This document shows positions 17,133-54,800 of a stretch of 64,000 bases of DNA, one piece after another. The first letter of the stretch is position 1. Every line of letters begins with the position of its first letter. The notes below the pieces were generated by a model. It did not search any database, was not told the origin of the DNA, and saw nothing but the letters and a program-made list of their open reading frames with translations. Source of the DNA: an uncultured Bacteroidota bacterium. GTDB taxonomy: Bacteria; Bacteroidota; Ignavibacteria; UBA10030; UBA6906. The stretch is from the NCBI GenBank assembly GCA_963714855.1, contig CAVQPT010000006.1:188734-252733 (forward strand). Reading direction: 5' to 3'. The translations under genes and the position numbers were made by a program.

Positions 17133-17141
17133 TTCCGCATT

Positions 17142-35815: not shown

Positions 35816-37642
35816 ATGACTATTCGGGAGAGATCGACCATGGTCAGGATCGGAACAAAGCTCGGATTCGGCATAGGCATCCTTCTGGCTCTGTGCGTGG
35901 TGATTGGCGTTGTCTCATACACGCAAACCCGCACGGTGAGCAGGAAACTGGAAGAGTTGACCCAGGTGAAGGAACCGGTGAACTCGGCGGTCTACGGTCT
36001 CGAAAACCATCTGGTTGAAGTCTCTTTTGCCGCATTCGGCTTTTCCACAACGGGGGATCCCGATCTTCGTGAGTCATTCCACAGGGCAATGGCTGATTCC
36101 GTTCGCCCGTGGAGGAGCGGAATCCTGACGATGGACCGGCAAATGAGCGCGAAAGGCGGAGAGTCGCTGGAGCGCGCGTTCGACGAGCTTCATCGTGCCG
36201 CAGCAATGCAGATCGCGCTGCGGGAGCAGGAGAGACGCACGATGGACACCTTGCAGGGTGATCTTGCCGGACTTGACCGTTTGCTTACCGACAAGATCCA
36301 GGCTTCCGTCAGCGTGAATGATCCCGTCGCGTACCGGCGGCTCCAGGTTGTTCTCGGCATGCAGGTCCAGCTCAATGCGATCACGCGGCATCTCAACAGT
36401 TTCCTCTTGTCTGGCGATGAAGAACCGGCCTCTCGCATCCGGGCGGCAGAGTCTGAGTTCTGGACCCTGTTGAGGGCCTATCAGGTTCTCGTGCTCCGTC
36501 CGGAGGAGAGAGGGTGGGCAACGGATCTCAACCGCCGGGTGCGCTCGACATTGGGAGTGACCGAAGCGGTGCTGGACCTCGACCGATCGCGGAGAGACCA
36601 CCTGGTCGGGTTTATGGAGCAGTACCACGCGTTGAAGTCTGTCCTCAGGGACGGCGTCCAGGCGGAAACAGAGGAGGGGCTGGCCCGGGCGAAAGAAGAT
36701 CTTCTGTCTGCCGGCCGAACTGCCAATACGACAATTATCGTTGTCCTGATCGTGAGTGTGCTCTTCGGGGTGGGTGCGGGGACAGCGACGACCCGCAACA
36801 TTACGCGGCCTCTTCACCATCTTACCACGGTCATGCGTGCGATTGCCGACGGCGACACACGCAGGCGTGTTGGGATTACCACATCGGACGAACTGGGTCT
36901 TGTCGGGGAGACGTTCAACCGGATGACGGATCAGCTGGAGAAGGCCGAGCGGTCGCGGATCGATGCGCTGCGGCAATTCACCTCTGCCATGCAGCGTGCC
37001 CAGGAAGAAGAACGCGCGCGGATTTCCCGTGAGTTGCATGATGACATTTGCCAGCGTTTGACCGGCACCAAATACCGTGTCGAGGTGCTGTTTGACCAGA
37101 TCCCGGCCGCAAACCGCCGGATGGTCCGAGAGCTCGAGGGGGTGACGCAGGAGCTGGATCATTCCATTGCAGAAGTCCGGCGCATTTCGTCGAACCTCCG
37201 GCCCAACGTGCTCGATGATTTTGGATTGGTGACAGCGCTCCGGATGCTCTGTTCCGAGTTTCAGAGGACTCAGAATATTTCGATGTCCTGCGATGTCAAC
37301 AATGAAGACGACATGCCGGCCGATACGCATGTTGAGATAGCCTTGTACCGCATTGCACAGGAAGCCCTTGCCAACATCGCGAAGCATGCGGGTGCGACGC
37401 ATGTGAACGTATCACTTGCCCGGGAGGGGTCGGAATTGCGTCTTCAGGTGAGGGACGATGGCAGGGGCTTTGTCCGCGGGGTCGACGCTGAGGAGGATGG
37501 AAAGGGTCATGGTTTCGGCCTGGTCAGCATGCAGGAACGTGCCGAGCTTCTCGGAGGGAGCTTCAGAGTACAGAGCGATCCCGGCGAGGGAACAGTGATC
37601 GCCATTGTTATTCCGATTCGTGGAGAGGAGGGACATGCGTAA
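35816..37642 (+). CDS. Sensor histidine kinase (periplasmic sensor, HAMP, HisKA_3, HATPase_c; NarL-partner type)
   Basis: TM1, an approximately 280-aa periplasmic helical domain, TM2, HAMP (…LGLVGETFNRMTDQLE…), an H-box ELHDDICQRLTG (HisKA_3), and N/G boxes (…GATHVNVSL…DDGRGF…GHGFGLVSMQERAELLGG). Confidence 0.9.
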   Translation: MTIRERSTMVRIGTKLGFGIGILLALCVVIGVVSYTQTRTVSRKLEELTQVKEPVNSAVYGLENHLVEVSFAAFGFSTTGDPDLRESFHRAMADSVRPWRSGILTMDRQMSAKGGESLERAFDELHRAAAMQIALREQERRTMDTLQGDLAGLDRLLTDKIQASVSVNDPVAYRRLQVVLGMQVQLNAITRHLNSFLLSGDEEPASRIRAAESEFWTLLRAYQVLVLRPEERGWATDLNRRVRSTLGVTEAVLDLDRSRRDHLVGFMEQYHALKSVLRDGVQAETEEGLARAKEDLLSAGRTANTTIIVVLIVSVLFGVGAGTATTRNITRPLHHLTTVMRAIADGDTRRRVGITTSDELGLVGETFNRMTDQLEKAERSRIDALRQFTSAMQRAQEEERARISRELHDDICQRLTGTKYRVEVLFDQIPAANRRMVRELEGVTQELDHSIAEVRRISSNLRPNVLDDFGLVTALRMLCSEFQRTQNISMSCDVNNEDDMPADTHVEIALYRIAQEALANIAKHAGATHVNVSLAREGSELRLQVRDDGRGFVRGVDAEEDGKGHGFGLVSMQERAELLGGSFRVQSDPGEGTVIAIVIPIRGEEGHA

Positions 37643-38360
37643 GACGAGAATCTTGCTGGCAGACGACCATGATGTGGTCCGCAGCGGACTGAAGGCACTG
37701 CTGCGCAGTGCTCATGATTTCGCCATTGTGGGCGAAGCGGCCGACGGCGAGGACGCCGTCCGTCTGGTCGATGAGCACCTCCCCGATATCGTCCTCATGG
37801 ATATTTCCATGCCCTTGCTGGACGGTATCGGGGCCACAAAGGTGATCAAGCAGCGCCATCCAGAGGTCAAGGTCCTGGTGCTTACGGTCTATGAGGATGA
37901 GGAGTATGTCTATCAGATCCTGCGTGCGGGCGGGAGCGGCTACATTCTCAAGAATGCGGCACGACAGGAAATCGTCGATGCCATTCATGCGGTTGCGGCG
38001 GGCGAACGGTTTTTCAGTCCCGGCATTTCTCGGGTGATCATTGACGGCTTTGTGAAGCGCGCGTTGGAGCAGGACTCGGAGTCGCCGCAGCCTCCCACGG
38101 GGGATTCGCCGTTGACGAAACGGGAAACGGAAATCCTGAGGTACATTGCTCTCGGGTACACCAACCGGCAGATTGCCGAGGAGTTGTTCCTCAGTTTCCG
38201 CACCGTGAACACACATCGGGCGAACCTGATGCAGAAACTGGACATCCACGATACCGCCGGGCTGGTTCGCCATGCGATGCACCTCGGTCTCGTCGAGTCT
38301 CCTTCGTCCTCCTCCCGCCCCCCTTCCGATTCCTTCCCTGGCAAGGGAAACCAGGCCTAG
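37635..38360 (+). CDS. Response regulator, NarL/LuxR family (REC plus HTH_LuxR) with Ser/Pro-rich C-terminal tail
   Basis: ATG at 37635 preceded by ggagaggaggg, overlapping the HK stop. REC residues DD…D(MDISMP)…T…K. The HTH_LuxR region is LTKRETEILRYIALGYTNRQIAEELFLSFRTVNTHRANLMQKL. Confidence 0.9.
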   Translation: MRKTRILLADDHDVVRSGLKALLRSAHDFAIVGEAADGEDAVRLVDEHLPDIVLMDISMPLLDGIGATKVIKQRHPEVKVLVLTVYEDEEYVYQILRAGGSGYILKNAARQEIVDAIHAVAAGERFFSPGISRVIIDGFVKRALEQDSESPQPPTGDSPLTKRETEILRYIALGYTNRQIAEELFLSFRTVNTHRANLMQKLDIHDTAGLVRHAMHLGLVESPSSSSRPPSDSFPGKGNQA

Positions 38361-38498: not shown

Positions 38499-39395
38499 AT
38501 GAAGACTCTTTCCCTTATACCCTTGTTCGCCGCCCTGCTGCTTCTGGGATGCGCCGATCGGGAGAAGGAGGAAGCGCTTCAGAAACAGCTCGGCCAGGCG
38601 GAGAACGACCGGCAATCGTATCAGTCGCTTCTTGCCGAGCGCGATTCGTATCTTGAAGGCGTGATGAAAGAAATCAACGATATCTACTCCGAGCTGGAGG
38701 CTGCCCGAGCCAAGGAAGGAAAACTCCTTTCTCCCACCGGTCAGACCGAAGGGGCGGCGTCGGCAAGCAATCTGGATACCCGCAAGCAGCTGTTGACAAA
38801 CATCGCGGCCATCCAGGATGCACTGAAAGAGAATCGCAAAAAGATACTTGATCTGCAGACACGTTTGAAATCGACCCAGGCACGGCTGACATCCTCCCAG
38901 GGGGAACTTGCGGGCCTGAACAAGCTGGTGGAGAACCTCCAGGCAACCCTGACGGAGCGCGAAAATTCTATCGCCACTCTCCAGGCACAGGTCGTCGGAC
39001 TTGAAGAAACGGTAACGACAAAAACCCGTGAGCTTGCAGAAAAAGATGTCCAGCTTGAAGAACAACGGACGAAAATGAGTACGGCGTACTACGTAGTTGC
39101 CCCCCGAGAGGAACTCGAGGAGAAGGGGATCATTACGGAGGAAGGCGGGTTCCTCTGGGGGCTTCTTGGATCAACAACGGTCGTGTCGAGTTCCTGGGAC
39201 CCGGCCGTGTTCACGGCTCTGGACAAGAGACGCGAACAAACACTTCGTATCCCGGGTCGCATCGCTGAAATTTTGCCCCGGCGCAATGCGGATGTCTTCG
39301 CTCTGACCGAAGTCGGAGACAACGATTCGGAACTGAAAATACTTCAGCCCGAAAAATTCTGGAAGGACAACTACCTGGTGGTGGTGTTGAATTAA
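38499..39395 (+). CDS. Coiled-coil lipoprotein, hypothetical
   Basis: caggagg RBS and lipobox LLLLGCAD. About 180 aa of heptad-like coiled coil, then a small C-terminal domain. Confidence 0.55.
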   Translation: MKTLSLIPLFAALLLLGCADREKEEALQKQLGQAENDRQSYQSLLAERDSYLEGVMKEINDIYSELEAARAKEGKLLSPTGQTEGAASASNLDTRKQLLTNIAAIQDALKENRKKILDLQTRLKSTQARLTSSQGELAGLNKLVENLQATLTERENSIATLQAQVVGLEETVTTKTRELAEKDVQLEEQRTKMSTAYYVVAPREELEEKGIITEEGGFLWGLLGSTTVVSSSWDPAVFTALDKRREQTLRIPGRIAEILPRRNADVFALTEVGDNDSELKILQPEKFWKDNYLVVVLN

Positions 39396-39477: not shown

Positions 39478-39667
39478 GGAAGTAGTACATCCGATCGCGA
39501 GCGCCGACGTCCGGAACTACTGCCGCGATGGTCAGGGGAAGCCCTCGTATACGCGACCGTCGGCTCCGGAGTGGTCGTTGACTTCAGTGCGGTCGTCCGG
39601 GTGTTGACTTTGAGTCCCCATGCTGGTAGATTCCCCCTCACACGTTCACTCTCGGGAGGGGTGTTTC

Positions 39668-40498
39668 ATGGCTGCACCCAGGCGACTCACCGCTGAACAG
39701 GTCCGGCACTTCCACCATCATGGCTACCTTCACCACCTTCCACCGGTGTACTCACCGCTGGAGATGGAGGATCTGAACAGGGGCTTACATGAGCTGCTGT
39801 CTCTCCTCCGGCCCGGTGAAACGTCGAAGGAAATCAGGGAGTGGCACGAGACCAGCAGGTTTCTGTTCGACATCTGCATGCATCGCACGATCCTGGACTA
39901 TGTCGGAGACCTGCTGGGATCCGACTTTTTCCTCTGGGGATCGAACTTCTTCATCAAGCCTCCCCGCAGTCTGGCGACCGTCGGATGGCACCAGGACGCA
40001 TACTACTGGCCCCTTGACCCTCACGAGTCCCTGACGGTCTGGCTGGCGTTTGATGACAGCACAGTCGAAAACGGAGCCATGACGGTTGTCCCCGGTTCTC
40101 ACCGTGCCGGGCTGCTCAAGCACATTCGTGCCCGGGAAACCGATTCGGTCCTGATGCTTGAGTGTGAACGCGGGCAATTCCGGGAAGACACCGCCGTTCC
40201 CGTGACGCTTCAGGCGGGTGAAGTTTCCATCCACGATGACAAGCTGGTCCATGGTTCGCCTGCAAACCCTTCAGACACACGCCGTGCCGGTTTGACGATC
40301 CGCTATTCCCGAACCAATGTGAAGTGCGACCTGTCCGTCAATCCGAATTTCACGACCTACCTCTGCCGTGGGACCGATCGATACCGGCACAACCCGATGG
40401 GGAGTATCCCCGTGCAGCAGTATGCACGACTCGAACGGAAGCATCTCAGTGTGGAAGAGGCGGGTGCTGATGCAGAAAAGAAGCTGGGGCGTGCGTAG
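39668..40498 (+). CDS. Phytanoyl-CoA dioxygenase (PhyH) family Fe(II)/2-oxoglutarate-dependent oxygenase
   Basis: ATG at 39668 preceded by ggagggg. It has the HxD…H facial triad context WHQDAYYWPL…VVPGSHR…IHDDKLVHGS and a C-terminal R for 2OG binding. Confidence 0.8.
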   Translation: MAAPRRLTAEQVRHFHHHGYLHHLPPVYSPLEMEDLNRGLHELLSLLRPGETSKEIREWHETSRFLFDICMHRTILDYVGDLLGSDFFLWGSNFFIKPPRSLATVGWHQDAYYWPLDPHESLTVWLAFDDSTVENGAMTVVPGSHRAGLLKHIRARETDSVLMLECERGQFREDTAVPVTLQAGEVSIHDDKLVHGSPANPSDTRRAGLTIRYSRTNVKCDLSVNPNFTTYLCRGTDRYRHNPMGSIPVQQYARLERKHLSVEEAGADAEKKLGRA

Positions 40499-40516: not shown

Positions 40517-43500
40517 CTATCCGTTTTCTCCGGTCAGCCGTGCGATCTGCAGCAGAAAGAATCGCAGGCGGTTCTGATCGTCTGTTGAAAGAGCCTGGTC
40601 TTCAATCCGTGCGATGCGTTCAACCTCTTTCATCGCCCGGATCACGTTCGCCGGCACCTCAACAAGCCCTTCGGATGCGATGGCAAGATACTCGATTGCC
40701 GCGCCGAGGAAGCGGTGCATTTCGTCATCCGTTCCGGACATGCGGAAAAAGCTCTCGAGACCCGAGGGGAGGCGGGGTCTCCGCCCCTGCGAGGCCAGCT
40801 CCGGGCTCATGTCCTTTCCGGATATTGCATAGAGCGCCACTGCGAGTTCGACGAAGGCATCGACGCGCTCGAAGACCGGTTGTTCCAGCAGCGACCACGC
40901 ATGTTCCCTCCATTGACGCACCTCCAGGGGAAGGCGCATCAACCGGCTGATTTCCTTTTTCCAGGAGGGATCTATCGGTCCGTGCGCCAGGTCCGTGAGT
41001 TTCGCGGGATCCGTGTTGAACAAATCCTGCTGCAGGAGCACGGCGAGGTCGGGACGCAGTGCGGGGAGGAGGTCGGGAATGAACCGAGAGCCTTCGAAGA
41101 AATCGCCAACGTCCACGCCATGCCGGCGCACGAGTTCCTGCTGGAGGAGGGGAATGAAGCGGCCCATCGCGTCGACATCTTCACGCAATGCAAGCAGGGC
41201 CGCGTTCCCGGCCGGGAATGCGCGTTCGACCGATCGCAAACAGGTTCGCTCGACGTCAAGATACAGTCGCAGATTCTGCAGGATTTCATACACGGGAAGG
41301 TGCGGGAGAATTCTGTCAGCGACAAATGTCTCGGGGTCACCTTCAACGGATTCATGCCGGGTGAAGCTGTCCAGCGCGCGGAAAAGTCCCGTGGAAAGCT
41401 GGGGGATACCGAGGACGGTGGTCTGGGCCTGGTTGTGTGCGATGGCGCGGAGGAGGCTGCCATAGCGCGATAGGGGGATCGTGCTGGCGATACGTTCGAG
41501 GATCCGGTTTCCCCGGTCTTTGCCGGCTGAGACCGGGCGTACGGTCGGACGGTCGCGGAGTGCGGGCGTTGTCCGGGCGATGAAGTATGAGAGAATATGG
41601 ATTCCGACAACGTCTTCGTCCCGTCCGTACAGAATCTGTCTGAAGTTCTGCGTGAGGAGGCCGAGAAAATCGTGCAGGACCGGATCGGCCGTGCCGAGCG
41701 TGAGGCGTTCGAGGGCCTGTTTTCCTCGGGTGGTGGTTATCAGACGGCTTTCGGCGAGTTCTTCCCCCGCCCGCACGATTTCTCTGCTGTGCACGTCCTG
41801 CGAGACCTTCAGATGATGGAAAAGCTGCGCCAGATCGCGGACCGGAAGGTGCCGCATCTTTTCGGCGAGTGCGCTCTGGATTGTCCGGAGATCGCCGCCG
41901 GCAAACACGCCCATCATGGGAGTGGTGGCATAGAGAGCGCTGCGGCGTGCGGATGCGTGGAGGCGGCGGCTGAGATGTGAGGTGGCACCGTCCCCGCGGG
42001 CCAGGAATGCCGGTAGCCCGCTGAAGGTACCGTAGTATCCCCCCTGTCGTTGCATCGGTTCACCGCACCCCATTTTGAGGCGCACCCGGCCCGTCAGCCC
42101 GTGACCGGCAGTCCACTGCAGGATATCATGTTTCGCCTGCCGGTACAGCTGCATGCCTGCCGCCTGGCTCACCTGCTGGCTCAGATCAGACCCCGCAATG
42201 AACACTTCTGTTGTCAACTCTGCGAACCGTTCATGGGTTTCCTGATTCAGCCGTCGGCTCTGGAGTGAATATTCCCACAGCTTGTTGACATACGTGAGCA
42301 CGGAGCCGACTGCCTGGCGGTCTTCGAAGAGGGGCGTAAGCCAGACAGAGGGAATTTCCAGGTCTGGAGAGTCGCGCAGGATATGCTCACGCCGGGCACG
42401 CATTCTCCGATCAAGATCGATGAGCGCCTCGGGTTGTGTCGACATGCTGATTTGCAGAGCGAGAACAATGCCCGGGTTGCCGTAACGGGCCGCAATTTCG
42501 TTGATCTCGAGGATATTGAAGACCGTCGTGTCGATGGCGAACGGGTCCTGCGCCGTCACCATGTTCTGATGGATGCGGGGTGAAATCACGACACGCTGTA
42601 GCAGATCCCGGTACAGGACCGCCTGGCGGAGGAGCACAGGATTGGTCGTGCCGCGCGTTACGGCAGGGATCAACCGGAACACTTCCTTCCGGAGCCGCTT
42701 GTTCAGCGCGAAGTAGTACTCAAGCCCCTCCTTTCTCCGGCGTCGCAGCTCGAGCATGCGATGCTCGAGGCGGTCATTGTGATACCAGAGCGATGTCACC
42801 GGGTCACGTGCCAGGTGAAGGGTCATACCGATCTGACGCAGACGGCCTGACTTGGCGTGGAAGGGGAGAATGCCGCGATAGCGTTTTTCAAGCTGATGCG
42901 TCAGTGCGGTGATTTCGTTCAGCAGACGCACGAATCTGCCGGTCGTCCGGGGAAGCCGTTCGATCTCCGCGAGCAGCCTGCCGTCCACTCCTGCTCCGAT
43001 ATCGTGCATGGCCAGAGTCTGGAGGAGTCGGGAAAGACGATTGACATTGCTGAGGAGCACCGAAGCGATAAGCCGGTGTCCCTGTCCCGACGGTCTCGTA
43101 CTGCCGTCCCAGTCCCCCCAGAATGAAAGCATCAGAGGAGAGAGCCCCGCCTGATGGAGACCGGCATACTGCTCGGCGGCGACGAGGGAATCCAGATCGA
43201 GACAGATTTCGTCTGCTTCCTGGGTCGAGGAAATGGCAACGGAGGTGCCGGCAAACTCCGCGACCAGCGCCTGTGCCGCCCGTTCAATCGACAGGAGCGA
43301 AGGGGAAGAATCGGAAAGGAGTTCCTGTTCTATGGTGTCGAACGCCATCTCCGTCTGTAATGAAAACATCTGCGTCGGATGGACCGTGCGGTCGAACATC
43401 CGCTGTTGAAAGGCCTCCTTGCGGCGGGAGAGGCTGTCGCGGAACAGTTCGCGTTCCAGAATGTCTCCCAGCATACTGCCATTGTCGGAGCGGCATCGTT

Positions 43501-46120
43501 CCATGAGATCACGGGCGATTTCCTGCCTGTCGAGATAGCGCTGGCGGAACACGTCCAGGCGTGCTTCGAGGAAATCGTGCGAAAATGCCCGGAGCATCTG
43601 TTCGCGTTGCCCGGGCAGCCGCAGGGGAAACCGCGGCTCCTTGAGGAGGGGTGGGAGGGCGTTGTGCAGGGCTTCTTCCACTGCCGCCCACCGGGTGTCC
43701 TTCCTGCTTCCAGGTCCCTGGTTCCCCCGCACGGAAAAACTTTTCCTGCTGTACCGGGATGCCTCCTCGCCGATGAGCCGGTTCAGGTCAATCAGCACGC
43801 GCCTGGTCTTTGATGAAAGAGCTTCCGCTCCGTCAGTGCCACCCAGGGTTAGTCGGAACGCCTTTCGTCCGGTCTCGAACCCCTCCTCGGTGCGTGCAAA
43901 TGTCGACAGCGGTATCATTCCGATCCCCTGGCGCGCAAGTCCGGCAGCGACCCACTCGAGCGACAAGCCCGACGGGAGTTTGTGGATCTGCAAGATCGGG
44001 TACATGCTTCCCGTGGGGGGGAGGATGTCAAGCGCAAAAGGATTCCGGTCAGCGGGGACACTGCGAAACGCCGTGGCAATCGCATTCATCCGCTCGGCAA
44101 AAATGCTGTTGCGCAACCGCCAGTATGCCCGGACAACATGCGGAGGATTGCGGTACAACAGATAGCCGACAAGGATCGCCCCGGCGTTGGGGATAATGGT
44201 AGCGTTCAGCGCGTTGAACCGCATGCGCAACTCTTCCATCCGGATCTCGATTACTGAAAGACGCGCTCCTGCCAGACAGTCCGTTTTGGACAGGGAATGG
44301 ACCGTGACCACGAGGTCTGCCCGAGAGGATGGAATCCGTCCTGTCCGCACCAGTTCCTGCGCCATCTGGCGGAGTGTGGGGATATCAGGCAGGGTATCGG
44401 CCGGGACAACATTCTGATAGGAAAGATCGTCGACCACCATGATCCCCCGCGTCAACAGACTTTCCAGAAGGGATGTGACCGCGGCGGGATTGAAGATCCG
44501 TCCTGTGGCATTGTGCGGATTGTTGAGCACAACCGCACCACTGTCCTTCCACGCGGGGTTTGTGTCCACGCGCTCGTCAACGCAGCGGAGGATTGCATCG
44601 CTATCGAGCTGGAAATCTGGGGTCAGGGGGACGACGTGCACGCGCGGAAAACAGTGTTCATATGTCCAGCTTAGGTCCGGGAAAATGACCTCATGGATGC
44701 CACAATGAAACCCGAGGAGGCTGAGGGCGGTTCGAGCGGAGCCACTCACAACGGCGCATGCGGCGGGATCGTATTCGGCGTGGTGAGCGGCGAAGGAGCG
44801 GAGAAAACTCTGCGTGAGATCCCGTATGAGATGTTCGTCCCATGGCGATGCCGTCACCTCACGGATCACCTCAAGACTCCGCTGTGAAGCGAAACGGTCT
44901 ACCGGTGCGAGCATGGGGCTGGACTCTATTCGCTCCACACCATGCTCTGCGCGCGCGGCGAACCGTATTGCGGCCGCATCCAATGTCACCTGCCGGGCGG
45001 ACAGGATCGTTCCAAGTCGCCGCTCGGTTTGGAAAGAATACTGCTCCAAAGTAGCGTCGGCCTGTCCATGCCGTCTCGTCGGTTCTCGAGGAGGTTCTAC
45101 CGGCAGCGCTGCCGGAGCAGGCCTGTTCTCGGGGGTGCCCGGCTGAATGAGGAAGTGCACGAGTTCAGTTTCCGACGCCGACGGAGTCCCCTTCAGCTGG
45201 AAGTGCAGGGTTTCGAACAGAGAGAGATACTCTGCATTCCCGGCAAGGAACAGGAGGGAAAGGTGACGGAGGTCAGGGGAGAAAATCCCGGGGCTCAGAA
45301 TCCGTATGACGCGGTTGACGAGCTTCGCCTCCCGCGCGAGCGAGAGATGATTGGGTGCATCGTTCACCTCCAGGAAAAAGAGCGGTCTGGTCAGGCTCAG
45401 ACTGCGGAGGGATCGCCGTGTTTCTTCTGAGGGTACCGCGCCGAGGACGACGAACGTCGGGCGGTCCGGGCCGTCGTCAACAATTGCACGAAGAGCATCG
45501 AGCGCGGCTTGTTCGTTGGCAGGAAGTCCCTGGATGTGCAAACCGCTGAATGCGACGAGATGGGGCGGAATGTCGAGTTGATGGAGGAGGACCCGTGCGG
45601 GAAGTTCTGCCAGGTACACCGAGAGCGCATGGAAGAGGACGCGGAGTGCTTCGCGCACGCCTCCGGAGGCAAGGACGATCTCACGGTGGCCGGAGCTCTT
45701 TCCGAGGTCGTACCTCAGCGGTTCCTGTTGGTGGTGCAGCCAGTGATCGAAGGCGAGGACAAGAGGCGATGGCGACGTGCGCGTAAAGCCGCCGCGGGGG
45801 AGATACGGCGCGCTCTTCCGGATGAGTGCGGTGAGCAGATCCAGAAGCGGGCGGTCTCCGCCGCCGGCATCCAAGGCATCGAGGAGGCGTTGGGGATCGT
45901 CGTCGGTCAGCGATGTGTCCTGGACATCTATCCCCAGCGTGGCTCGCAGAAGAGCGGAGGAAAGCCGTGCATCCTGGACCGGATTTCCGATATGGAAATT
46001 GACGCGGTCCTCCGGCGCCACGGCCGAAGCCGATGTTGCTTCACTGATCTCGGATACCTTTGCGGCACGGGTCGGTTTGAGACGGAAGCGGGTGGCAATG
46101 TCATTGGTTGTCTGAGCCAT
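40517..46120 (-). CDS. Giant multidomain protein (1867 aa): two tandem PLP-aminotransferase-like (fold type I) modules fused to a divergent full-length phosphoenolpyruvate-carboxylase-like module
   Basis: One uninterrupted ORF. Module 1, aa 35-330, is degenerate aminotransferase-like: NFHIGNPVQD, IVLASGGVREALRVLFHAL, no SxSK. Module 2, aa 440-780: AVVSGSARTALSLLG, VVLNNPHNATGRIF (the NPxNPTG motif), MVVDDLSYQNVV, VTVHSLSKTDCLAGARLSVIEI (the SxSK PLP-Lys plus GxR motif). PEPC-like module, aa 880-1867, with PEPC motifs in canonical order: DRTVHPTQ (TAHPTE), LSFWGDWDGSTRP (WMGGDRDGNP), IAARYGNPGIVLALQISMSTQPEALIDL ([26 protein letters not shown]), LTPLFED (APLFET), FIAGSDLSQQ (MIGYSDSAKD), LKMGCGEPMQRQGG (FHGRGGSIGRGG), SLLRAIAHNQAQ (SLRAIPWIFAWTQ). 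C-terminus …ARLTGENG (…AGMRNTG). Confidence 0.8.
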   Translation of the reverse strand: MAQTTNDIATRFRLKPTRAAKVSEISEATSASAVAPEDRVNFHIGNPVQDARLSSALLRATLGIDVQDTSLTDDDPQRLLDALDAGGGDRPLLDLLTALIRKSAPYLPRGGFTRTSPSPLVLAFDHWLHHQQEPLRYDLGKSSGHREIVLASGGVREALRVLFHALSVYLAELPARVLLHQLDIPPHLVAFSGLHIQGLPANEQAALDALRAIVDDGPDRPTFVVLGAVPSEETRRSLRSLSLTRPLFFLEVNDAPNHLSLAREAKLVNRVIRILSPGIFSPDLRHLSLLFLAGNAEYLSLFETLHFQLKGTPSASETELVHFLIQPGTPENRPAPAALPVEPPREPTRRHGQADATLEQYSFQTERRLGTILSARQVTLDAAAIRFAARAEHGVERIESSPMLAPVDRFASQRSLEVIREVTASPWDEHLIRDLTQSFLRSFAAHHAEYDPAACAVVSGSARTALSLLGFHCGIHEVIFPDLSWTYEHCFPRVHVVPLTPDFQLDSDAILRCVDERVDTNPAWKDSGAVVLNNPHNATGRIFNPAAVTSLLESLLTRGIMVVDDLSYQNVVPADTLPDIPTLRQMAQELVRTGRIPSSRADLVVTVHSLSKTDCLAGARLSVIEIRMEELRMRFNALNATIIPNAGAILVGYLLYRNPPHVVRAYWRLRNSIFAERMNAIATAFRSVPADRNPFALDILPPTGSMYPILQIHKLPSGLSLEWVAAGLARQGIGMIPLSTFARTEEGFETGRKAFRLTLGGTDGAEALSSKTRRVLIDLNRLIGEEASRYSRKSFSVRGNQGPGSRKDTRWAAVEEALHNALPPLLKEPRFPLRLPGQREQMLRAFSHDFLEARLDVFRQRYLDRQEIARDLMERCRSDNGSMLGDILERELFRDSLSRRKEAFQQRMFDRTVHPTQMFSLQTEMAFDTIEQELLSDSSPSLLSIERAAQALVAEFAGTSVAISSTQEADEICLDLDSLVAAEQYAGLHQAGLSPLMLSFWGDWDGSTRPSGQGHRLIASVLLSNVNRLSRLLQTLAMHDIGAGVDGRLLAEIERLPRTTGRFVRLLNEITALTHQLEKRYRGILPFHAKSGRLRQIGMTLHLARDPVTSLWYHNDRLEHRMLELRRRRKEGLEYYFALNKRLRKEVFRLIPAVTRGTTNPVLLRQAVLYRDLLQRVVISPRIHQNMVTAQDPFAIDTTVFNILEINEIAARYGNPGIVLALQISMSTQPEALIDLDRRMRARREHILRDSPDLEIPSVWLTPLFEDRQAVGSVLTYVNKLWEYSLQSRRLNQETHERFAELTTEVFIAGSDLSQQVSQAAGMQLYRQAKHDILQWTAGHGLTGRVRLKMGCGEPMQRQGGYYGTFSGLPAFLARGDGATSHLSRRLHASARRSALYATTPMMGVFAGGDLRTIQSALAEKMRHLPVRDLAQLFHHLKVSQDVHSREIVRAGEELAESRLITTTRGKQALERLTLGTADPVLHDFLGLLTQNFRQILYGRDEDVVGIHILSYFIARTTPALRDRPTVRPVSAGKDRGNRILERIASTIPLSRYGSLLRAIAHNQAQTTVLGIPQLSTGLFRALDSFTRHESVEGDPETFVADRILPHLPVYEILQNLRLYLDVERTCLRSVERAFPAGNAALLALREDVDAMGRFIPLLQQELVRRHGVDVGDFFEGSRFIPDLLPALRPDLAVLLQQDLFNTDPAKLTDLAHGPIDPSWKKEISRLMRLPLEVRQWREHAWSLLEQPVFERVDAFVELAVALYAISGKDMSPELASQGRRPRLPSGLESFFRMSGTDDEMHRFLGAAIEYLAIASEGLVEVPANVIRAMKEVERIARIEDQALSTDDQNRLRFFLLQIARLTGENG

Positions 46121-46164
46121 TGCAGGAAGGGCTGGACGTCGATGAGGAGTGATCGTCGTTGCCG

Positions 46165-47130
46165 CTATGCTTTCTTCCCTTTGGCATACGCGTCCAGTGC
46201 GTTCTGGACGAGTGCATGGAACATTCCGAGCAGTTCCGGTGCCTGTCCCCCCTCGCCCGGGGCGAGGTTGACAACGGTCCGCGCGTTCTTGAGTGTCTGG
46301 CTTGCTTCGGCCAGTCGTGCGGCTTGCGGGGTCAGAAGAAGCAGTTCTGGATTTTCTTTCAGCAGCCGGAGTTCTTCCTTGTCGAATTCAAGCTGGAGAC
46401 GCTTCAGCCGGAGCTCATGATCGGCCCGATGGGCAGCGAGGGCTGCATCGTTTTCAAACTGTTCCTTACGCAGAGTGAAGCGTTTCATCTCCAGCGTATT
46501 TTCGTGGGTCGATATCTCCTCGTCCGCCTTCAGGCGCGCCCTGGCCGCGGCGACACGCGCCTGCTGGTTCATGAGTTCTGTTTGTTCCAGGATGCGGGCC
46601 TGCTCCTGGGAACGGATGGCCTCTGCAATCCGGGCATCAACAGCCTCGAACGAGACGACTGTCAGCATCACCACTTCGACACCCAGGGTCGACCTGTATT
46701 CCGGAGTATGGGTATGGAGATGGGCCTGAATCTTCTCTGACGAGAGATCTTCGATCCCATGCAGTTCGGTGTATCCCTTCACATGCCCGAGGAGGAGGGT
46801 TTCGAGTTCTTTTGCGGCCCTCTGGACGGCGTCCCTCGTCCATCCGCCCACGCTGAGCAATGCCGGGAGGTTCTCGATCGAGGGTGTCACCGTTGCGGCC
46901 AGTTTTACGCGGACGTCCAGATTCCCCTTTGCCGAAGCGTCAATTGTCTGGGTGAAGGCGTGGGTTGTTCGGCCAATCGGCGTGCTAAAGTGGCGTGGAT
47001 AGAACCGCGTCGTGCGGATCCGGACACCGTCCCGTGTTTCGGCCAGGACAATCTGATCCGGGCGCCGGATGCGGTATTCGAACACGACAAGAGCGCAGAG
47101 GACAACACCGAGAATTGCGACGAATTCCAT
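46165..47130 (-). CDS. Flotillin-like / SPFH (band-7) domain membrane protein (FloA-like), 322 aa
   Basis: ATG at 47130 preceded by aggag. N-terminal TM MEFVAILGVVLCALVVF, an SPFH-like core, and a long Glu/Arg/Ala-rich coiled coil (…IRSQEQARILEQTELMNQQARVAAARARLKADEE…). It ends 44 nt upstream of the giant ORF, on the same strand. Confidence 0.65.
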   Translation of the reverse strand: MEFVAILGVVLCALVVFEYRIRRPDQIVLAETRDGVRIRTTRFYPRHFSTPIGRTTHAFTQTIDASAKGNLDVRVKLAATVTPSIENLPALLSVGGWTRDAVQRAAKELETLLLGHVKGYTELHGIEDLSSEKIQAHLHTHTPEYRSTLGVEVVMLTVVSFEAVDARIAEAIRSQEQARILEQTELMNQQARVAAARARLKADEEISTHENTLEMKRFTLRKEQFENDAALAAHRADHELRLKRLQLEFDKEELRLLKENPELLLLTPQAARLAEASQTLKNARTVVNLAPGEGGQAPELLGMFHALVQNALDAYAKGKKA

Positions 47131-47258: not shown

Positions 47259-48323
47259 TTAGGCGGCGGAGCCGTGAAAATATCTCTTTCGTAAGGCCAG
47301 GGACACATTCACAAGGCCGATAAGAACTGGAACTTCCACAAGCGGGCCGATGACCGTTGCGAAGGCCTCGCCGGAGTTGATCCCGAACACGGCCACAGCC
47401 ACCGCGATGGCGAGCTCGAAGTTGTTGCTGGCCGCCGTGAATGACAGCGTGGCGGTCTTGGGATAGTCAGCACCGGCTTTCCGGCTGAGCCCGAATGAGA
47501 CCAGGAACATAATGACGAAGTAGAGAGTCAGAGGGAGCGCTATGCGCAGGACATCCAACGGGATCCGCACGATGTACTCTCCCTTCAGAGAAAACATGAC
47601 GACGATGGTAAACAGAAGGGCGACCAGTGTGATTGGACTGATCCGGGGGATGAACTGTTTTTCGTACCACGATCGTCCCTTTTGACGGAGCAAGACAAAT
47701 CGCGTGATTATTCCGGCCAGAAACGGGATGCCAAGATAGATGAGGACGCTCTGTGCAATTTGGCCAATGGTAATGTCAACAACAATCGACGCCAGGCCGA
47801 GCCATCCGGGGAGCACCGTAAGAAAGACGTAGGCGTACACGGAAAAAAACAGGACCTGAAAGACCGAATTCAGGGCAACGAGTCCCGCAGCGTATTCGGT
47901 GTCTCCTTTGGCGAGTTCGTTCCAGACGATGACCATCGCAATACAGCGCGCCAGCCCCATCAGTATCAACCCTGCCATGTACGCAGGGTAGTCGTGGAGG
48001 AAGAGCACAGCAAGTACGAACATGAGGAGAGGTCCGATGATCCAGTTCTGTACCATTGAAAGAAGTAGCACGCGGGTGTTCCTGAATACTTCGCCGAGTT
48101 CTTCGTATTTGACTTTCGCAAGTGGCGGGTACATCATCAGGATCAGCCCGACGGCGATAGGGATGTTGGTCGTGCCGGACTGAAACGATTCCCAGAAGCC
48201 AGTGATGTCCGGTATAAAGTATCCTGCTGCTATCCCCAGGGCCATTGCTGTGAATATCCACAGGGTGAGGTAACGATCGAGGGGTGAGAGTCTTCGTACG
48301 GTATGTGGCAAAGTGTCAGTCAT
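47259..48323 (-). CDS. acr3: Arsenite efflux transporter, ACR3 family
   Basis: [24 protein letters not shown]… with 10 TM and the typical ACR3 length and motifs (…MMYPPLAKV…NWIIGP…). Confidence 0.9.
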
Positions 48324-48748
48324 GAACGATCGCGGATGGTGGTGTTATAGAAGTGACGAAACGTGCGGTGGATCTCGTCCCGTACCCTTCGGAATTCCGA
48401 CAGCACCTGTTCTTCCGTTCCCTTGGCTTCGGCGGGGTCGTCAAAACCGATATGCAACCGGTTTCGCACGTTGCCGGTGAACACGGGGCATGTTTGCTTC
48501 GCACTGTCGCACACCGTTATCACGAAATCAAACGTTTGATTCAGGAACTGGTCGACATTCTTCGGGGACGCGCCGGCAAGATCGATTCCTTCTTCCTTCA
48601 TTACGGCCGCAGCCAGCGGGTGGACGCGTTCAGCGGGGCGTGTGCCCGCTGAAGAGACCTGGAGCGCGGGTTCGAATGAACGAAGGAATCCTTCCGCCAT
48701 CTGGCTCCGGCATGAATTGCCGGTACAGAGGATGAGAATGCTGGTCAT
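48320..48748 (-). CDS. arsC: Arsenate reductase, LMW-PTPase family (thioredoxin-coupled ArsC)
   Basis: [18 protein letters not shown]-loop (CX5R) plus downstream Cys residues. 142 aa. Its stop overlaps the acr3 start. Confidence 0.9.
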
Positions 48749-48958
48749 ACGGTTCGTAGTATTTAGCGTTTACGAGCTGTCCGCAACAGTCAGTTTGGTC
48801 CGACGATGCCTCTTCGGCTCAGCCATGGTACCTTCCGAAGCAATCTACGCACGGCGGTCTGAATTCGCAAGGAGGAACTCTGTAAACGGGGGTTTCTTTT
48901 GTTTCTGGCTTCTGCTACATTAATGTATACCCCTCCTCCGGAACGCCGAGGCTACCGT

Positions 48959-49744
48959 ATGGACATTATGCTCTATCAGGTTGATGCGTTTACCGATGTG
49001 CTCTTTCGTGGCAATCCAGCCGCCGTCTGTCCCTTGGTGGCATGGCCCGACGATGCGCTCCTTCAGAATATCGCGGAGGAAAACAATCTCTCCGAGACGG
49101 CATTCTACGTGCCGGAAGGAGACCTCTTCAAAATCCGGTGGTTCACACCGATCTGTGAAGTGGATTTGTGCGGCCATGCGACTCTTGCTACCGCGCACGT
49201 GTTGTTCACTCACGTGGGGTTTAAAGGAAATGAAATCAGGTTCATGTCCCGGAGCGGAATCCTCAACGTCCGACGGGAGGATGAGGACCTTGTGCTCGAT
49301 TTCCCCGTCGATGTTCCCCGTGCCGTTTCGCCTCCCGCGGCTCTCGAGCAGGCGCTCGGCATGCCCCCCCTGGAGGTTCTGCGGGGAAAGGACGACTTCC
49401 TTGCAGTGTATCGCTCTCAGGTTGACGTGGAAACATTGAAACCGGACTTCGGGCTGGTAGAAAAAATTCCCTGCCGTGGCATTATCGCAACTGCTCCGGG
49501 AAAAACAGTTGATTTTGTCTCGAGATTTTTCGGACCGCAGTCCGGCATTGCGGAAGATCCGGTGACCGGTTCGGCGCACACCACGCTGGTCCCGTACTGG
49601 GCGGGGAGACTGGGGAAGATGTCCCTTGAGGCCCGCCAGGTATCGCGCCGGGGAGGCCATCTCCGCTGTACACTCAAGGGTGACAGGGTCGACATCGGCG
49701 GCCGCGCGCGGACATTCCTCATCGGCAAGGCCCATATTGTGTAG
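48959..49744 (+). CDS. PhzF-family isomerase (phenazine biosynthesis-like protein)
   Basis: MDIMLYQVDAFTDVLFRGNPAAV… with conserved E and the GHAT motif. 261 aa, typical of the PhzF/YddE fold. Confidence 0.85.
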   Translation: MDIMLYQVDAFTDVLFRGNPAAVCPLVAWPDDALLQNIAEENNLSETAFYVPEGDLFKIRWFTPICEVDLCGHATLATAHVLFTHVGFKGNEIRFMSRSGILNVRREDEDLVLDFPVDVPRAVSPPAALEQALGMPPLEVLRGKDDFLAVYRSQVDVETLKPDFGLVEKIPCRGIIATAPGKTVDFVSRFFGPQSGIAEDPVTGSAHTTLVPYWAGRLGKMSLEARQVSRRGGHLRCTLKGDRVDIGGRARTFLIGKAHIV

Positions 49745-51715: not shown

Positions 51716-51811
51716 TTGCAGGCCGTGTTGCTCAGTGCGCCCCGTCCGGGACCCGGGCCGGCCTGACATCATAACCACATCGTGCACCGTTCCCCAACAA
51801 CCGAGAACGTC

Positions 51812-54800
51812 ATGCGCCGAACCCTCTCGCTTTTTTGCCTCTTTTGTGCTGCTACCGCGTTCGCCGGTCAACAGGGATACTACCGTTTTCCTGCACTTCA
51901 CGGCACCACCGTCGTATTCACGGCGGAGGGAGATTTGTGGACGGTCGATCTGATAGGTGGGATGGCCCGCCGATTGACGTCCCATCCCGGTATGGAATCG
52001 CACGCAGCCATCGCACCCGATGGGGCGACGATCGCTTTTTCTGCGGAGTATGAGGGGCCGACCGAAGTGTATACAATGCCTGCCGGGGGCGGCATCCCGA
52101 CCCGCCGCACATACGACGGGAATGCACGTGTTGTTGGATGGACGCCAGACGGGAAAATCCTGTACACCACGCGGCGCTACTCGGGCCTCCCCGATGCACG
52201 CCTCTACACGATCGATCTCCGGACCGACTCAACGGTCTCAATACCTCTTGCACAGGCCAGTGATGGTACGTTTGATGACACGAGCACCATCCTGTACTTC
52301 ACACGGCTTCCGTTCCAGGGGAGTCAGACGAAACGATACAAAGGAGGCACGGCGCAGAATATATGGATGTATACGCTGGGTGCACACGAAGCAGTTCCGC
52401 TGACCGGCGACTATGCCGGAACGAGCAAAGAACCCCTCTGGTATTCCGGCCGCATCTATTTTGCCTCTGATCGTGATGGAACGATGAATCTCTGGTCTAT
52501 GAACGCTCAGGGAGCCGACCTCCGGCAACACACGCACCACAGTGGATGGGACGTTCAGTCGCCGGCCCAGGACCGTGGGAAGATCGTGTACCAGCTCGGA
52601 GCCGATCTCCATGTTTTTGACACCGCAACTGACACCGACCGGCTGATTCCCATCACGCTCAGTTCAGATTTTGACCAGCTGCGTGTGAAGTGGGTGAAGA
52701 AGCCGATGGACTACCTCACCACCTACAATATCTCCCCCAACGGGGACCGCGTCGTCCTTACCGCACGCGGGCAGATCTTTGTTGCTCCGGTTGAGAAAGG
52801 GAGATTCGTTCGCGTCACGAATGAGAGCAGTGTACGGTACCGCAGCGCAACGTTCCTTCCGGATGGTAAACGGCTTCTTGCCCTTTCGGACGACACCGGT
52901 GAAACCGAGTTTGTGAGCCTCCCTGCCAACGGCGTCGGCGATCGGATACGGCTGACAGGCGATGCAAGAGTCCTCCGCTGGGGAGGAGTTCCATCGCCCG
53001 ATGGTACGCTGATTGCCTATACCGACAAGAACGAAGAGATCTGGATCTTGGACACGGGGAAGAAGACCAACACGCGGATTCTTCACACGGAGGAAGGAAA
53101 TCCCGGAGGGCTGGCCTGGTCTCCCGACAGCAAGTGGCTTGCGTACAACAACTCGGCATCCAATTTCTTCGATCAGATCTCTCTCTATCACGTTCCCACT
53201 GGCAAAACCGTCGAGCTCACAAGCGATCGGGTAGATAGCTACTCACCCGCCTGGTCACCCGACGGGGAATGGCTCTACTTCCTCTCCGATCGTGTCTTCC
53301 AGTCGGTGGTCCCGAGTCCCTGGGGCGCTCGGCAGCCCGAACCGTACTTTGACAAGACGAGAAAGGTCTATGCCGTCGGCTTGAAGGCAGACGAGCGTCT
53401 TCCTTTCCAGCCGCCGGACGAGTTGTACGTGCCCGCAAAGGAGACAAAAAAAGGCGACGCAAAAAAGGATGGAAAGAAAGGAGACGAGGATGCGGATGAG
53501 AAGAAAAGCGTCGAAGTACGCATCGATCTGAACGGGCTTCAGCAGCGGGTGTGGGAGGTTCCTCTCCCCGCGGGGGCATATTCCGGGCTGGCCGTGACCG
53601 ACAAATACCTTTACCTGACCGAGCGCCAGGCCCTGTATCAGGGGAAAAGCTCGCTCAGTGCGGTCGAGATCAAGAACACGGATGTGGCAGCCAAGACCAT
53701 CGTCGAGGACATCCGGGGATTCGAAGTCTCGCGTGACGGCAAGAAAGTGCTTGTGAGAAAAGGGGACGACCTTCACGTTGTCGATGTCGACGGAAAGGCA
53801 CCCGGCGACCTGGCAAAGACAAAAGTCAACCTTTCCAACTGGCTGCTCTCCGTCGATCCCCGCCAGGAATTCCGCCAGATGTTTCTCGAATCATGGCGGC
53901 TTGAGCGCGACTATTTCTATGACACGACGCTTCACAAGATTGACTACAGAGGATTACTTGCAAAGCATCTTCCTCTGGTGGATCGCGTGACGGACCGTTC
54001 CGAACTCAGCGATCTCATCGCGCATCTTGTCGGGGAGCTGTCCGCCCTGCATATCTTTGTCTACGGCGGCGATCTGCGAAGCTCACCGGATGACATCGGT
54101 GTGGCTACCCTCGGGGCCCGACTCGAGCGTGATGCGCAGGCAGGCGGTTATCGCATCGCACATATCTATCGCTCGGATCCGGAATACCTGGATGTCGCTT
54201 CGCCCCTGGCCCGCCCGGACGGGAAGATTGTCGAAGGCGATATTGTTATTGCGATCAACGGCACTCCCACTCTTTCCGTTGCATCGCCTGAGCTCCTCTT
54301 GAGAAATCAGGCAGATAAGCAGGTTCTCCTTCATTTGCGGAGCGGAGACGGCAAGAAGGAGTACGATGTCATAGTGGAACCCATCAGCCTGGCCGGGGAG
54401 GACAATCTCCGCAATACGGAATGGGAACTCACGCGCCGGGAACGCGTAGAGCAGCTGAGCGATGGTGACATCGGCTACGTGCACCTCCGTGCCATGGGCG
54501 CCAGCAATTACACAGAATGGGTCAAAAGTTTCTATCCGGTCTTCGACAGAAAAGGGCTGATTATTGACGTGCGCCACAACCGGGGGGGTAACATCGACAG
54601 CTGGATCCTCGAGAAGTTGCTTCGCAAGGCATGGTTCTACTGGCAGAGCAGGGTTGGGAAACCGTACTGGAATATGCAGTTCGCGTTCCGCGGGCACATG
54701 GTGGTGTTGTGCAATGAGCGGACCGCGTCGGATGGCGAAGCGTTCTCCGAGGGATTCCGCCGGCTCGGTCTCGGGAAGCTCATCGGTACCCGCACCTGGG

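Follow-up and report, generated by a model that had tools for sequence, protein, structure and literature searches.

A conserved gene pair linking a divergent SPFH protein to a giant fusion of aminotransferase-like modules and a PEP carboxylase-derived domain

Introduction

Phosphoenolpyruvate (PEP) carboxylase (PEPC) is among the best-studied carbon-fixing enzymes, and only stand-alone forms of it, bacterial/plant-type and archaeal-type, have been recognised. None of the four PEPC types (atPEPC, bacterial, BTPC and PTPC) is a fusion, and atPEPC is a stand-alone homotetrameric carboxylase of ~55-60 kDa (PMC8100219). Known SPFH subfamilies have conserved operon partners; among those of the 12 prokaryotic subfamilies surveyed in 2009, no aminotransferase is mentioned (PMC2636767). 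Here, we describe a gene pair from an uncultured Bacteroidota bacterium (contig CAVQPT010000006.1, positions 188,734 to 252,733; this 64,000-nucleotide stretch is the window referred to below) in which a divergent SPFH gene precedes a giant gene. The giant protein carries two aminotransferase-like modules in its N-terminal half and ends in an extremely divergent relative of PEPC.

A giant fusion of fixed order and length

The open reading frame (ORF) reported in the initial annotation is confirmed with its ATG start and 1867 codons, and lies on the minus strand, which the annotation had left unsaid (Table 1). An identical protein (P0001, 100%) is encoded on a public contig of 309,714 bp. A word-indexed search found at least 716 database relatives; the best 120 of these are 1765-1900 aa long (nearly all 1848-1900), share at least 52% identity, and are named either 'PLP-dependent aminotransferase' (PLP, pyridoxal 5'-phosphate) or nothing at all. 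When one genome per species is considered, a relative is encoded in 406 species-representative genomes, and all of the best 80 of these relatives are full length. The 80 belong to Ignavibacteriota/Melioribacter, Bacteroidota, Chloroflexota-Anaerolineae and Acidobacteriota, and candidate division KSB1 holds divergent members of the family.

The order of the modules and the length of the fusion are strictly kept across at least five phyla. Thirty further full-length representatives, 1691-1947 aa long and only 34-47% identical, retain the same three-module order; the conservation counts given below refer to 31 family representatives, down to 34% identity. When a profile of the C-terminal module was searched exhaustively with HMMER against 1.84 billion representatives, 246 matches came back, all of them family members or fragments. 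The C-terminal module begins at aa ~680-860 in every full-length match, and not one of the 246 is a stand-alone C-terminal module. The two short candidates that were looked up (P0121 and P0155) are contig-edge fragments, and neither the HMMER search nor the look-up of short candidates found a split version of the giant gene. Identity between phyla is ~50%, about the same as that with the Melioribacter-type members inside the Ignavibacteriota/Bacteroidota group, and this similarity of values suggests that the gene family has spread laterally.

An extremely divergent homolog of PEPC

The kinship of the C-terminal module with PEPC is invisible to ordinary sequence searches. The window protein has no PEPcase match in Pfam at E<=0.1, and its C-terminal part has none at E<=10; the full protein has no significant PEPC match in NCBIfam. 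Searches of PDB sequences by phmmer and hmmsearch, with the protein, a full-length profile and a C-terminal profile, returned no significant PEPC match, and the family profile gave none at E<=10. The exhaustive search of the 1.84 billion representatives likewise contains no bridge to PEPC. No Pfam or NCBIfam model covers either this module or the first N-terminal one.

Three more sensitive comparisons, taken together, establish the homology. First, all 26 Foldseek matches of the C-terminal model at E<=1e-3 are PEPCs (the next match has E 0.019). The best is the E. coli enzyme (1fiy, 2.1e-8), plant PEPCs are also among them, 3odm follows at ~3e-6, and the alignments cover the whole module, so that the likeness is to the PEPC fold along the entire chain and extends to 3ODM. 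Second, hhalign aligns the family profile with a PEPC profile of 12 sequences (E. coli Ppc and 11 diverse plasmid-borne PEPCs) at E 9e-5 over 331 columns. The alignment grows to 772 columns at E 1.7e-4 when the settings are relaxed (-mact 0.02), and it then pairs family aa 803-1770 with E. coli residues 24-879. Against the single E. coli Ppc sequence, hhalign aligns the right motifs at a probability of only 0.4%. Third, PEPcase and PEPcase_2 are the top sub-threshold Pfam matches in three family members: among the C-terminal parts of 18 relatives, one matches PEPcase at E 0.046 and one PEPcase_2 at E 0.042, and the best PEPcase_2 match is that of P0156 (14.5 bits, E 0.013; gathering score 25 bits), with none for the window protein. 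The module is thus a true but extremely divergent PEPC homolog, 12-13% identical to PEPC. We call it a PEPC-derived domain and do not file it as a PEPC, because it fails on the hidden Markov model (HMM) score, the Gly-rich loop and the Lys546 feature. The initial annotation had expected a PEPcase profile match here. Plain HMM searches do not give one, and their failure is too strict a refutation, since profile-profile and fold comparison do detect the kinship.

How much of the PEPC active site has survived? The motifs quoted in the initial annotation are all literally present in the order in which it gave them, including NNPHNATG and SLSK...GAR in the N-terminal half and the ...TGENG end, and those of the PEPC-like module are not chance resemblances, since their columns are invariant in the 31 representatives and are aligned to PEPC motifs by profile-profile comparison. 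The equivalents of the two metal ligands (E1266 and D1312) and of Leu504 (L1264) are invariant. The hydrophobic pocket keeps its Trp and Leu and has Met538 replaced by F1307, and all three positions are invariant. The arginines that would bind the PEP phosphate are R1144, R1524 and R1558; their columns (Arg396, Arg699 and Arg713) come from the relaxed alignment and are less certain than the core. The register of SFWGDWDGSTRPSGQGH is ambiguous by three residues between hhalign and the alignment of the initial annotation.

The other side of the site is different. The family's Gly-rich loop reads K-[MLFY]-G-[SC]-G-E-P-M-Q-R-Q-G-G, with His579 replaced by M, L, F or Y and Arg581 by S or C in all 31 representatives, and with Arg587 kept as R1358. 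Lys546 has become Gln1315, and the Gln is invariant. Two new invariant residues appear in the lid, K1349 in place of Phe578 and E1354 in place of Gly583, and the hhalign map offers no counterpart in the family for TEQGE, Trp717 or Lys620. The lid of PEPC handles bicarbonate and carboxyphosphate, and some of the replaced residues have been tied to this role by site-directed mutagenesis. Even so, no other region of the protein is conserved as well as the core from aa 1001 to 1362 (48.8% mean pairwise identity, 13% invariant columns). Judged from these columns, the metal/PEP half of the active site is under strict selection and the lid has been rebuilt. The extreme C-terminus, ...GENG, resembles the PEPC ...NTG end without being identical to it; the tail lies outside the hhalign alignment, and G883 is invariant in the PEPC set. 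The Asp/malate inhibitor pocket of Flaveria PEPC consists of R641, K829, R888 and N964 (PMC3586729). Of this pocket, the family conserves just two elements well, the R587 equivalent and a C-terminal Asn.

The aminotransferase-like half

The initial annotation described two tandem aminotransferase-like modules, the first without its PLP lysine. The claim holds fully for module 2, and for module 1 it is the most likely interpretation, on weaker evidence. Module 2 matches PF00155 over aa 444-762 with 46.6 bits (E 3.7e-12; gathering score 19.7), and structure comparison assigns it to fold type I. Besides the residues in Table 1, the phosphate-binding Ser (S609) is invariant or nearly so, and the PLP site of module 2 is intact. 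The type of reaction cannot be read from the fold, because the closest structures and models mix ACC synthase, C-S lyases (PatB, cystalysin and MalY) and true transaminases, and the best NCBIfam match is to the threonine-phosphate decarboxylase CobD (5.4e-7).

Module 1 has no match in Pfam or among PDB sequences. Its predicted order of alpha and beta elements fits the N-terminal segment and large domain of class-I aminotransferases, and hhalign aligns it collinearly with module 2 over 222 columns at E 0.004 when divergent representatives are used (E 0.27 with close homologs only). In this alignment the position of the PLP lysine falls in SPGIFSP (consensus TPAIFSP), a segment without any Lys, and a deletion has removed the NPxNxTG stretch (NNPHNAT in module 2). 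Module 1 is therefore most likely an aminotransferase-like large domain that lacks the PLP lysine.

In aspartate aminotransferases, the loop with Tyr70 crosses the dimer interface to the PLP phosphate of the partner subunit. At the very place of the APY106xPRGGF loop of module 1, 14 residues are missing from module 2, and by analogy the Y106 loop of module 1 may be the equivalent of the Tyr70* loop. The losses of the two modules are complementary, module 1 being without the Lys and NPxN and module 2 without the Tyr-loop, and for this reason we infer that modules 1 and 2 form an intramolecular pseudo-dimer, one half dead and one live, with a single PLP site. A model of the 880-aa N-terminal part reaches a predicted template-modelling score (pTM) of 0.77 despite the unconserved linker between the modules, which has a mean pairwise identity of 12.8% and 0 invariant columns.

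Despite its apparent catalytic death, module 1 has 21 invariant columns, among them those of NFHIGNP (aa 41-47), and close to its end stands a strongly conserved motif, HFQLKGTPSASE, in which K310 is kept in 29 of the 31 representatives. Such residues could contribute to the live site, form a second ligand site or contact the PEPC-like module.

The SPFH partner and the surroundings of the pair

The 321-aa partner protein begins with a transmembrane helix, MEFVAILGVVLCALVVF, followed by RIRR, an SPFH-like domain and a long, heptad-rich coiled-coil tail. Since RIRR comes after the helix, the positive-inside rule suggests that the bulk of the protein is cytoplasmic. The initial annotation had placed an SPFH/flotillin-like gene, in the same orientation, 44 nt upstream of the giant gene. 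The spacing is exact, and the family assignment holds by way of the orthologs, 10 of 16 of which match Band_7 (best E 6.5e-8); the partner genes of two divergent loci, L095 and L097, carry the mark 'Band_7 (weak)'.

The SPFH gene and the giant gene probably form one operon, and in the closest relative (L002) they abut or overlap. An SPFH ortholog lies directly upstream on the same strand in all 79 loci that have upstream DNA, and it holds the same place in the most divergent members, of the KSB1 type. When all ORFs of the loci are clustered, no other neighboring gene is found in more than 4 of 81 loci. The SPFH gene and the giant gene are a self-contained, conserved two-gene module that occurs in variable contexts, with the SPFH protein as the obligate partner. 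Neither protein has a PADLOC defense-system match, and Rfam detects no riboswitch or other regulatory RNA in the window or in four relative loci.

Several observations concern the neighborhood in this lineage. Directly upstream of the SPFH gene lie an SBF/ACR3-type transporter gene (Pfam SBF, 3.8e-60) and a gene of the low-molecular-weight phosphatase/ArsC type (LMWPc, 6e-23), joined by a 4-nt stop/start overlap. At the same place, L002 has an SBF gene with an ArsR-type HTH_5 gene and a methyltransferase gene. This cluster looks like an arsenic-resistance cassette that is lineage-specific and outside the conserved module. On the other side, a PhyH-family dioxygenase gene converges with the giant gene and ends 18 nt from its stop codon. 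Beyond it are a gene for a 298-aa coiled-coil lipoprotein, which matches NF052320, 'Cbp1 family collagen-binding glycoprotein adhesin' (E 8e-40, 137 bits, cutoff 90), and genes for a HAMP/HisKA_3 histidine kinase and a LuxR-type response regulator that overlap by 38 nt. The kinase, regulator and PhyH genes flank the giant gene in L002 as well, a synteny confined to this lineage, and the syntenic counterpart of the lipoprotein there has 291 aa and no Pfam match.

Further away, ~5.7 kb from the module, the window encodes a Tricorn-type protease (PD40, Tricorn_C1, PDZ_Tricorn and Peptidase_S41). The very divergent locus L097 has a Tricorn protease gene as well (1-1630), upstream of the module; with two cases, this may be a coincidence. 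A 271-aa ORF without a Pfam or NCBIfam match is overlapped by a plus-strand ORF of similar length. The KSB1-type contig L096 carries a canonical pair of NfeD and Band_7 (stomatin-type) genes (15722-17811), ~3 kb downstream of its giant gene, and that genome thus has a classical SPFH operon as well as the enzyme-linked SPFH gene. The window as a whole, which comes from an FCB-group-like bacterium, has a GC content of 58.6%; TonB receptors that carry CarboxypepD_reg domains, a sorting tail of the type IX secretion system (T9SS) and the Tricorn protease form part of the context.

Table 1. Coordinates of the gene pair, its modules and motifs, and neighboring genes (positions are those of the window; fractions are counts among the 31 family representatives)
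Feature	Position	Strand	Remarks
Giant ORF	40517..46120	minus	ATG start; 1867 aa + stop codon
Module 1 (aa 1-325), degenerate aminotransferase-like large domain (pseudo-aminotransferase)	45146..46120	minus	Most likely assignment, from secondary-structure order and hhalign
APY106LPRGGF loop, proposed Tyr70* equivalent	45785..45811	minus	Y106, P108, R109, G110, G111 invariant
HFQLKGTPSASE (aa 307-317)	45170-45202	minus	Conserved motif of module 1
Linker (aa 326-414)	44879..45145	minus	Disordered stretch, then one ~48-residue helix (aa 353-400); from secondary structure and predicted local distance difference test (pLDDT)
Module 2 (aa 415-790), intact PLP-dependent aminotransferase domain of fold type I, class I/II	43751..44878	minus
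NNPHNATG (aa 533-540), Asn binding PLP O3'	44501..44524	minus	N537 invariant, 31/31
DDLSY, D565 and Y568 of PLP site	44417-44431	minus	Both invariant, 31/31
SLSK612TDCLAGAR620 (aa 609-620), Schiff-base lysine and phosphate-binding Arg	44261..44296	minus	K612, R620 invariant, 31/31
R756, alpha-carboxylate Arg	43850-43858	minus	Invariant, 31/31
PEPC-like module (aa 791-1867)	40520..43750	minus	~190 aa longer than E. coli PEPC
TVHPTQ (aa 912-917) = PEPC TAHPTE	43370..43387	minus	H914 = catalytic His138, by hhalign; invariant, 31/31
SFWGDWDGSTRPSGQGH (aa 999-1015) = PEPC SWIGGDRDGNP, with hydrophobic-pocket Trp	43076..43126	minus	W1001, D1003, W1004, D1005, R1009 invariant
SFWGDWDG (aa 999-1006)
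R1144 = Arg396	42689-42691	minus	Kept, 28/31
QISMSTQPEALIDL (aa 1223-1236)
TPLFED (aa 1262-1267) = PEPC PLFET	42320..42337	minus	E1266 = metal ligand Glu506; L1264 = Leu504
AGSDLSQQ (aa 1309-1316) = PEPC GYSDSAKD	42173..42196	minus	D1312 = metal ligand Asp543
KMGCGEPMQRQGG (aa 1349-1361), remodelled Gly-rich loop = PEPC FHGRGGSIGRGG	42038..42076	minus
RDRPTVR (aa 1522-1528) = PEPC GSRPxxR	within 41429..41557	minus	R1524 = Arg699, R1528 = Arg703; both invariant
LLRAIAHNQ (aa 1556-1564; LLRAI 1556-1560) = LRAIPW	within 41429..41557	minus	R1558 = Arg713; 31/31
RLTGENG, conserved extreme C-terminus	40520..40540	minus	Last Gly 30/31, N1866 28/31
Spacer, SPFH stop codon to giant-gene ATG	46121..46164	minus	44 nt
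Partner gene, membrane-anchored divergent SPFH/Band_7 protein	46165..47130	minus	321 aa; ATG 47128-47130 set by ortholog alignment
Histidine kinase and LuxR-type response regulator genes	35816-38360	plus
Coiled-coil lipoprotein gene	38499-39395	plus	298 aa
PhyH-family dioxygenase gene	39620-40498	plus
SBF/ACR3-type transporter gene	47259-48323	minus
Low-molecular-weight phosphatase/ArsC-type gene	48320-48748	minus
Arsenic-resistance-like cassette	47259-48748		Comprises the two preceding genes
ORF without Pfam/NCBIfam match	48920-49735	minus	271 aa; overlapped by plus-strand ORF 48899-49744
Tricorn-type protease gene	51782-55075	plus

What reaction might the pair carry out?

Our preferred explanation, to which we give an even chance, is that the giant protein would be an enzyme active at both of its sites, with PEP/enolpyruvate chemistry linked to transamination at a membrane SPFH scaffold. 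The system would then consist of two gene products, the membrane-anchored scaffold and a 1867-aa cytosolic enzyme with two catalytic centers. At the first center, the dead module 1 would lend its N-terminal segment and Tyr-loop to the PLP site of module 2, leaving one live PLP site per polypeptide, which would act on an alpha-amino or 2-oxo acid. At the second, the PEPC-derived barrel, with its Mg2+/Mn2+ ligands, three PEP-phosphate arginines, C3 hydrophobic pocket, catalytic His and Arg587 all kept, would bind PEP-Mg2+ and generate metal-bound enolpyruvate. An electrophile or other acceptor, perhaps one other than canonically handled bicarbonate, would capture the enolpyruvate, and the resulting 2-oxo acid would be transaminated in cis; alternatively, the whole route could run in reverse. 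The SPFH oligomer would hold, regulate or gate the enzyme on the cytoplasmic side of the membrane. The comparisons above show the folds, the homology, the conserved residues and the gene pairing; what we infer in this scheme is that PEP is the substrate, that the two sites are coupled and that the scaffold plays this part.

Several observations weigh against such an enzyme. All 12 sequences of the PEPC profile keep His579, Arg581, Lys546 and TEQGE, which are replaced in the family, and because of these replacements the barrel may not turn over PEP. The TM-scores of the C-terminal model to PEPC are low (0.3-0.45), and the model is only moderately confident (pLDDT 72.9), with the lid region and the last ~250 aa below 50. 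Finally, the window's own copy of the partner has no Band_7 match, so that its SPFH membership rests on the orthologs.

Could the barrel still take PEP but use it with a changed second substrate? The bicarbonate/carboxyphosphate lid has been rebuilt while the phosphate arginines, the metal site and the His are intact, and on this ground the product might be a 2-oxo acid other than oxaloacetate, made by a reaction new to the fold inside or on a cytoplasmic SPFH cage. We consider this quite unlikely. One example would be recapture of the phosphoryl group at C3 to give phosphonopyruvate, an unfavorable step that the fused transaminase would pull on to phosphonoalanine; another would be attack of the enolpyruvate on a different electrophile. 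If the former were true, it would be a path to the C-P bond that is independent of PEP mutase, and if the proposal as a whole were true, this would be the first SPFH assembly dedicated to a metabolic enzyme.

Perhaps, as in the first proposal of the initial annotation, the chemistry is entirely canonical, with a true PEPC (PEP + HCO3- -> oxaloacetate + inorganic phosphate) and an aspartate aminotransferase (labile oxaloacetate -> aspartate, directly) in one polypeptide. We think this improbable, though it is the rival that survives best. The metal ligands, the His138 and Arg587 equivalents and the PEP-phosphate arginines are all kept, the aminotransferase retains its alpha-carboxylate Arg R756, and part of the Asp/malate pocket (R587 and the C-terminal N) persists. 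Moreover, in Melioribacter roseus a PEPC activity concealed in the giant protein would not duplicate that of a canonical ppc: the genome paper gives Pyc, Mae and Pck and no PEPC (PMC3534657). That enzyme list does not decide for or against a carboxylase role, and the locus labeled M. roseus in this analysis (L030) belongs to a metagenome-assembled genome. Canonical carboxylation is, however, somewhat disfavored by the change of Lys546 to Gln, of Arg581 to Ser/Cys and of His579 to a hydrophobic residue, and by the absence of counterparts to TEQGE and Lys620. That the replacements are invariant in their turn suggests a new specificity more than it does drift. In addition, HMMER links the family to none of the thousands of PEPCs, and no residue that specifies a dicarboxylate substrate was identified in the aminotransferase.

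Alternatively, only the PLP site might be catalytic, and the PEPC-like module might be a non-catalytic sensor or scaffold for PEP, a dicarboxylate or the SPFH oligomer that regulates the aminotransferase. Several PEPC-invariant residues are indeed lost, the R587 and C-terminal Asn equivalents of the allosteric Asp/malate pocket are kept, and the module is never found alone, the apparent short forms being contig edges. We nonetheless regard this as a rather remote prospect. The initial annotation had raised a pseudoenzyme or regulator as its own alternative, which is now disfavored: the His, both metal ligands, the phosphate arginines and the hydrophobic pocket are invariant or nearly so down to 34% identity, and the core that holds the catalytic residues is the most conserved part of the protein. 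For binding alone, a domain should not require both a catalytic His and a complete metal site.

A further possibility is that the two centers are chemically unrelated, or that the PLP module is a lyase, a decarboxylase or a gamma-/beta-replacement enzyme of the class-I fold, fused for co-localization or co-regulation at the SPFH scaffold. This would be allowed by the span of the closest structures and models of module 2, from ACC synthase through C-S lyases and CobD to transaminases, and there is no conserved pathway gene nearby to constrain the chemistry. The fusion is, however, strictly kept in order and length in at least five phyla and has no detected split forms, which is more typical of coupled activities than of loose co-localization, and we consider this alternative very unlikely. 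That the fusion is an artefact, either the chimeric misassembly that the initial annotation had allowed for or a read-through of separate aminotransferase and PEPC-like genes, has a negligible chance of being true and is rejected, because hundreds of genomes carry relatives, the best 80 of the 406 full length, and the same uninterrupted ORF of ~1700-1950 aa recurs in hundreds of independent assemblies, among them contigs of 0.3-4.7 Mb.

Significance

By its sequence, the locus looks like a new architecture and a new PEPC lineage assembled from known kinds of parts, and hence like an undescribed enzyme system. The lineage is invisible to sequence annotation and has a strictly conserved catalytic core, and it would extend the PEPC fold to new chemistry or regulation. 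Public databases label these proteins 'PLP-dependent aminotransferase' or 'hypothetical' and nothing more, so that over half of a 200-kDa protein present in more than 400 species is without annotation; its hosts belong to groups that abound in sediments, wetlands and soils (Ignavibacteriota/Bacteroidota, KSB1, Chloroflexota-Anaerolineae and Acidobacteriota). The dead/live tandem aminotransferase, if true, would be a clear case of the conversion of a homodimer into an intramolecular heterodimer, and the pairing of an SPFH protein with a metabolic enzyme of its own would make the function of bacterial SPFH assemblies more tractable.

Comparison with known systems

The initial annotation knew of no described family with this architecture. 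We too found no description in the literature of an aminotransferase-PEPC-like fusion, or of an SPFH-aminotransferase pairing, and the comparison is therefore with the separate parts. Bacterial/plant-type PEPC (PF00311; E. coli Ppc 1FIY, Flaveria 3ZGE) has the same order of motifs and shares with the C-terminal module the catalytic His, Glu506, Asp543, Arg396, Arg699, Arg713, Arg587, the hydrophobic pocket and the C-terminal Gly. It differs in having His579, Arg581, Lys546, TEQGE and Trp717, where the module has a rebuilt lid with Lys1349 and Glu1354. Unlike PEPC, the module never stands free: ~800 aa of aminotransferase modules always precede it, and an SPFH gene always accompanies it. The archaeal-type enzyme (PF14010; Clostridium perfringens 3ODM) is also recognisably similar in fold (Foldseek E ~3e-6, TM-score 0.44-0.46 normalised to the target), but the C-terminal module is twice the size of atPEPC, is fused and falls below the Pfam threshold.

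Module 2 shares all PLP residues and the alpha-carboxylate Arg with the class-I/II aminotransferases (PF00155; kynurenine aminotransferase Bna3 3B46, LysN 2EGY, ACC synthase 7DLW, DapC 2DOU). Known members of PF00155 are homodimers with two active sites, whereas the giant protein would be an intramolecular dimer with one. To our knowledge, no aminotransferase with a tandem dead/live arrangement has been described. As for the partner, the prokaryotic SPFH operons (stomatin/NfeD, flotillin/NfeD-like, and HflK/C with FtsH) likewise place a coiled-coil SPFH protein in a fixed two-gene unit, but here the SPFH protein is paired with a 200-kDa metabolic-type enzyme instead of an NfeD protein or a protease.

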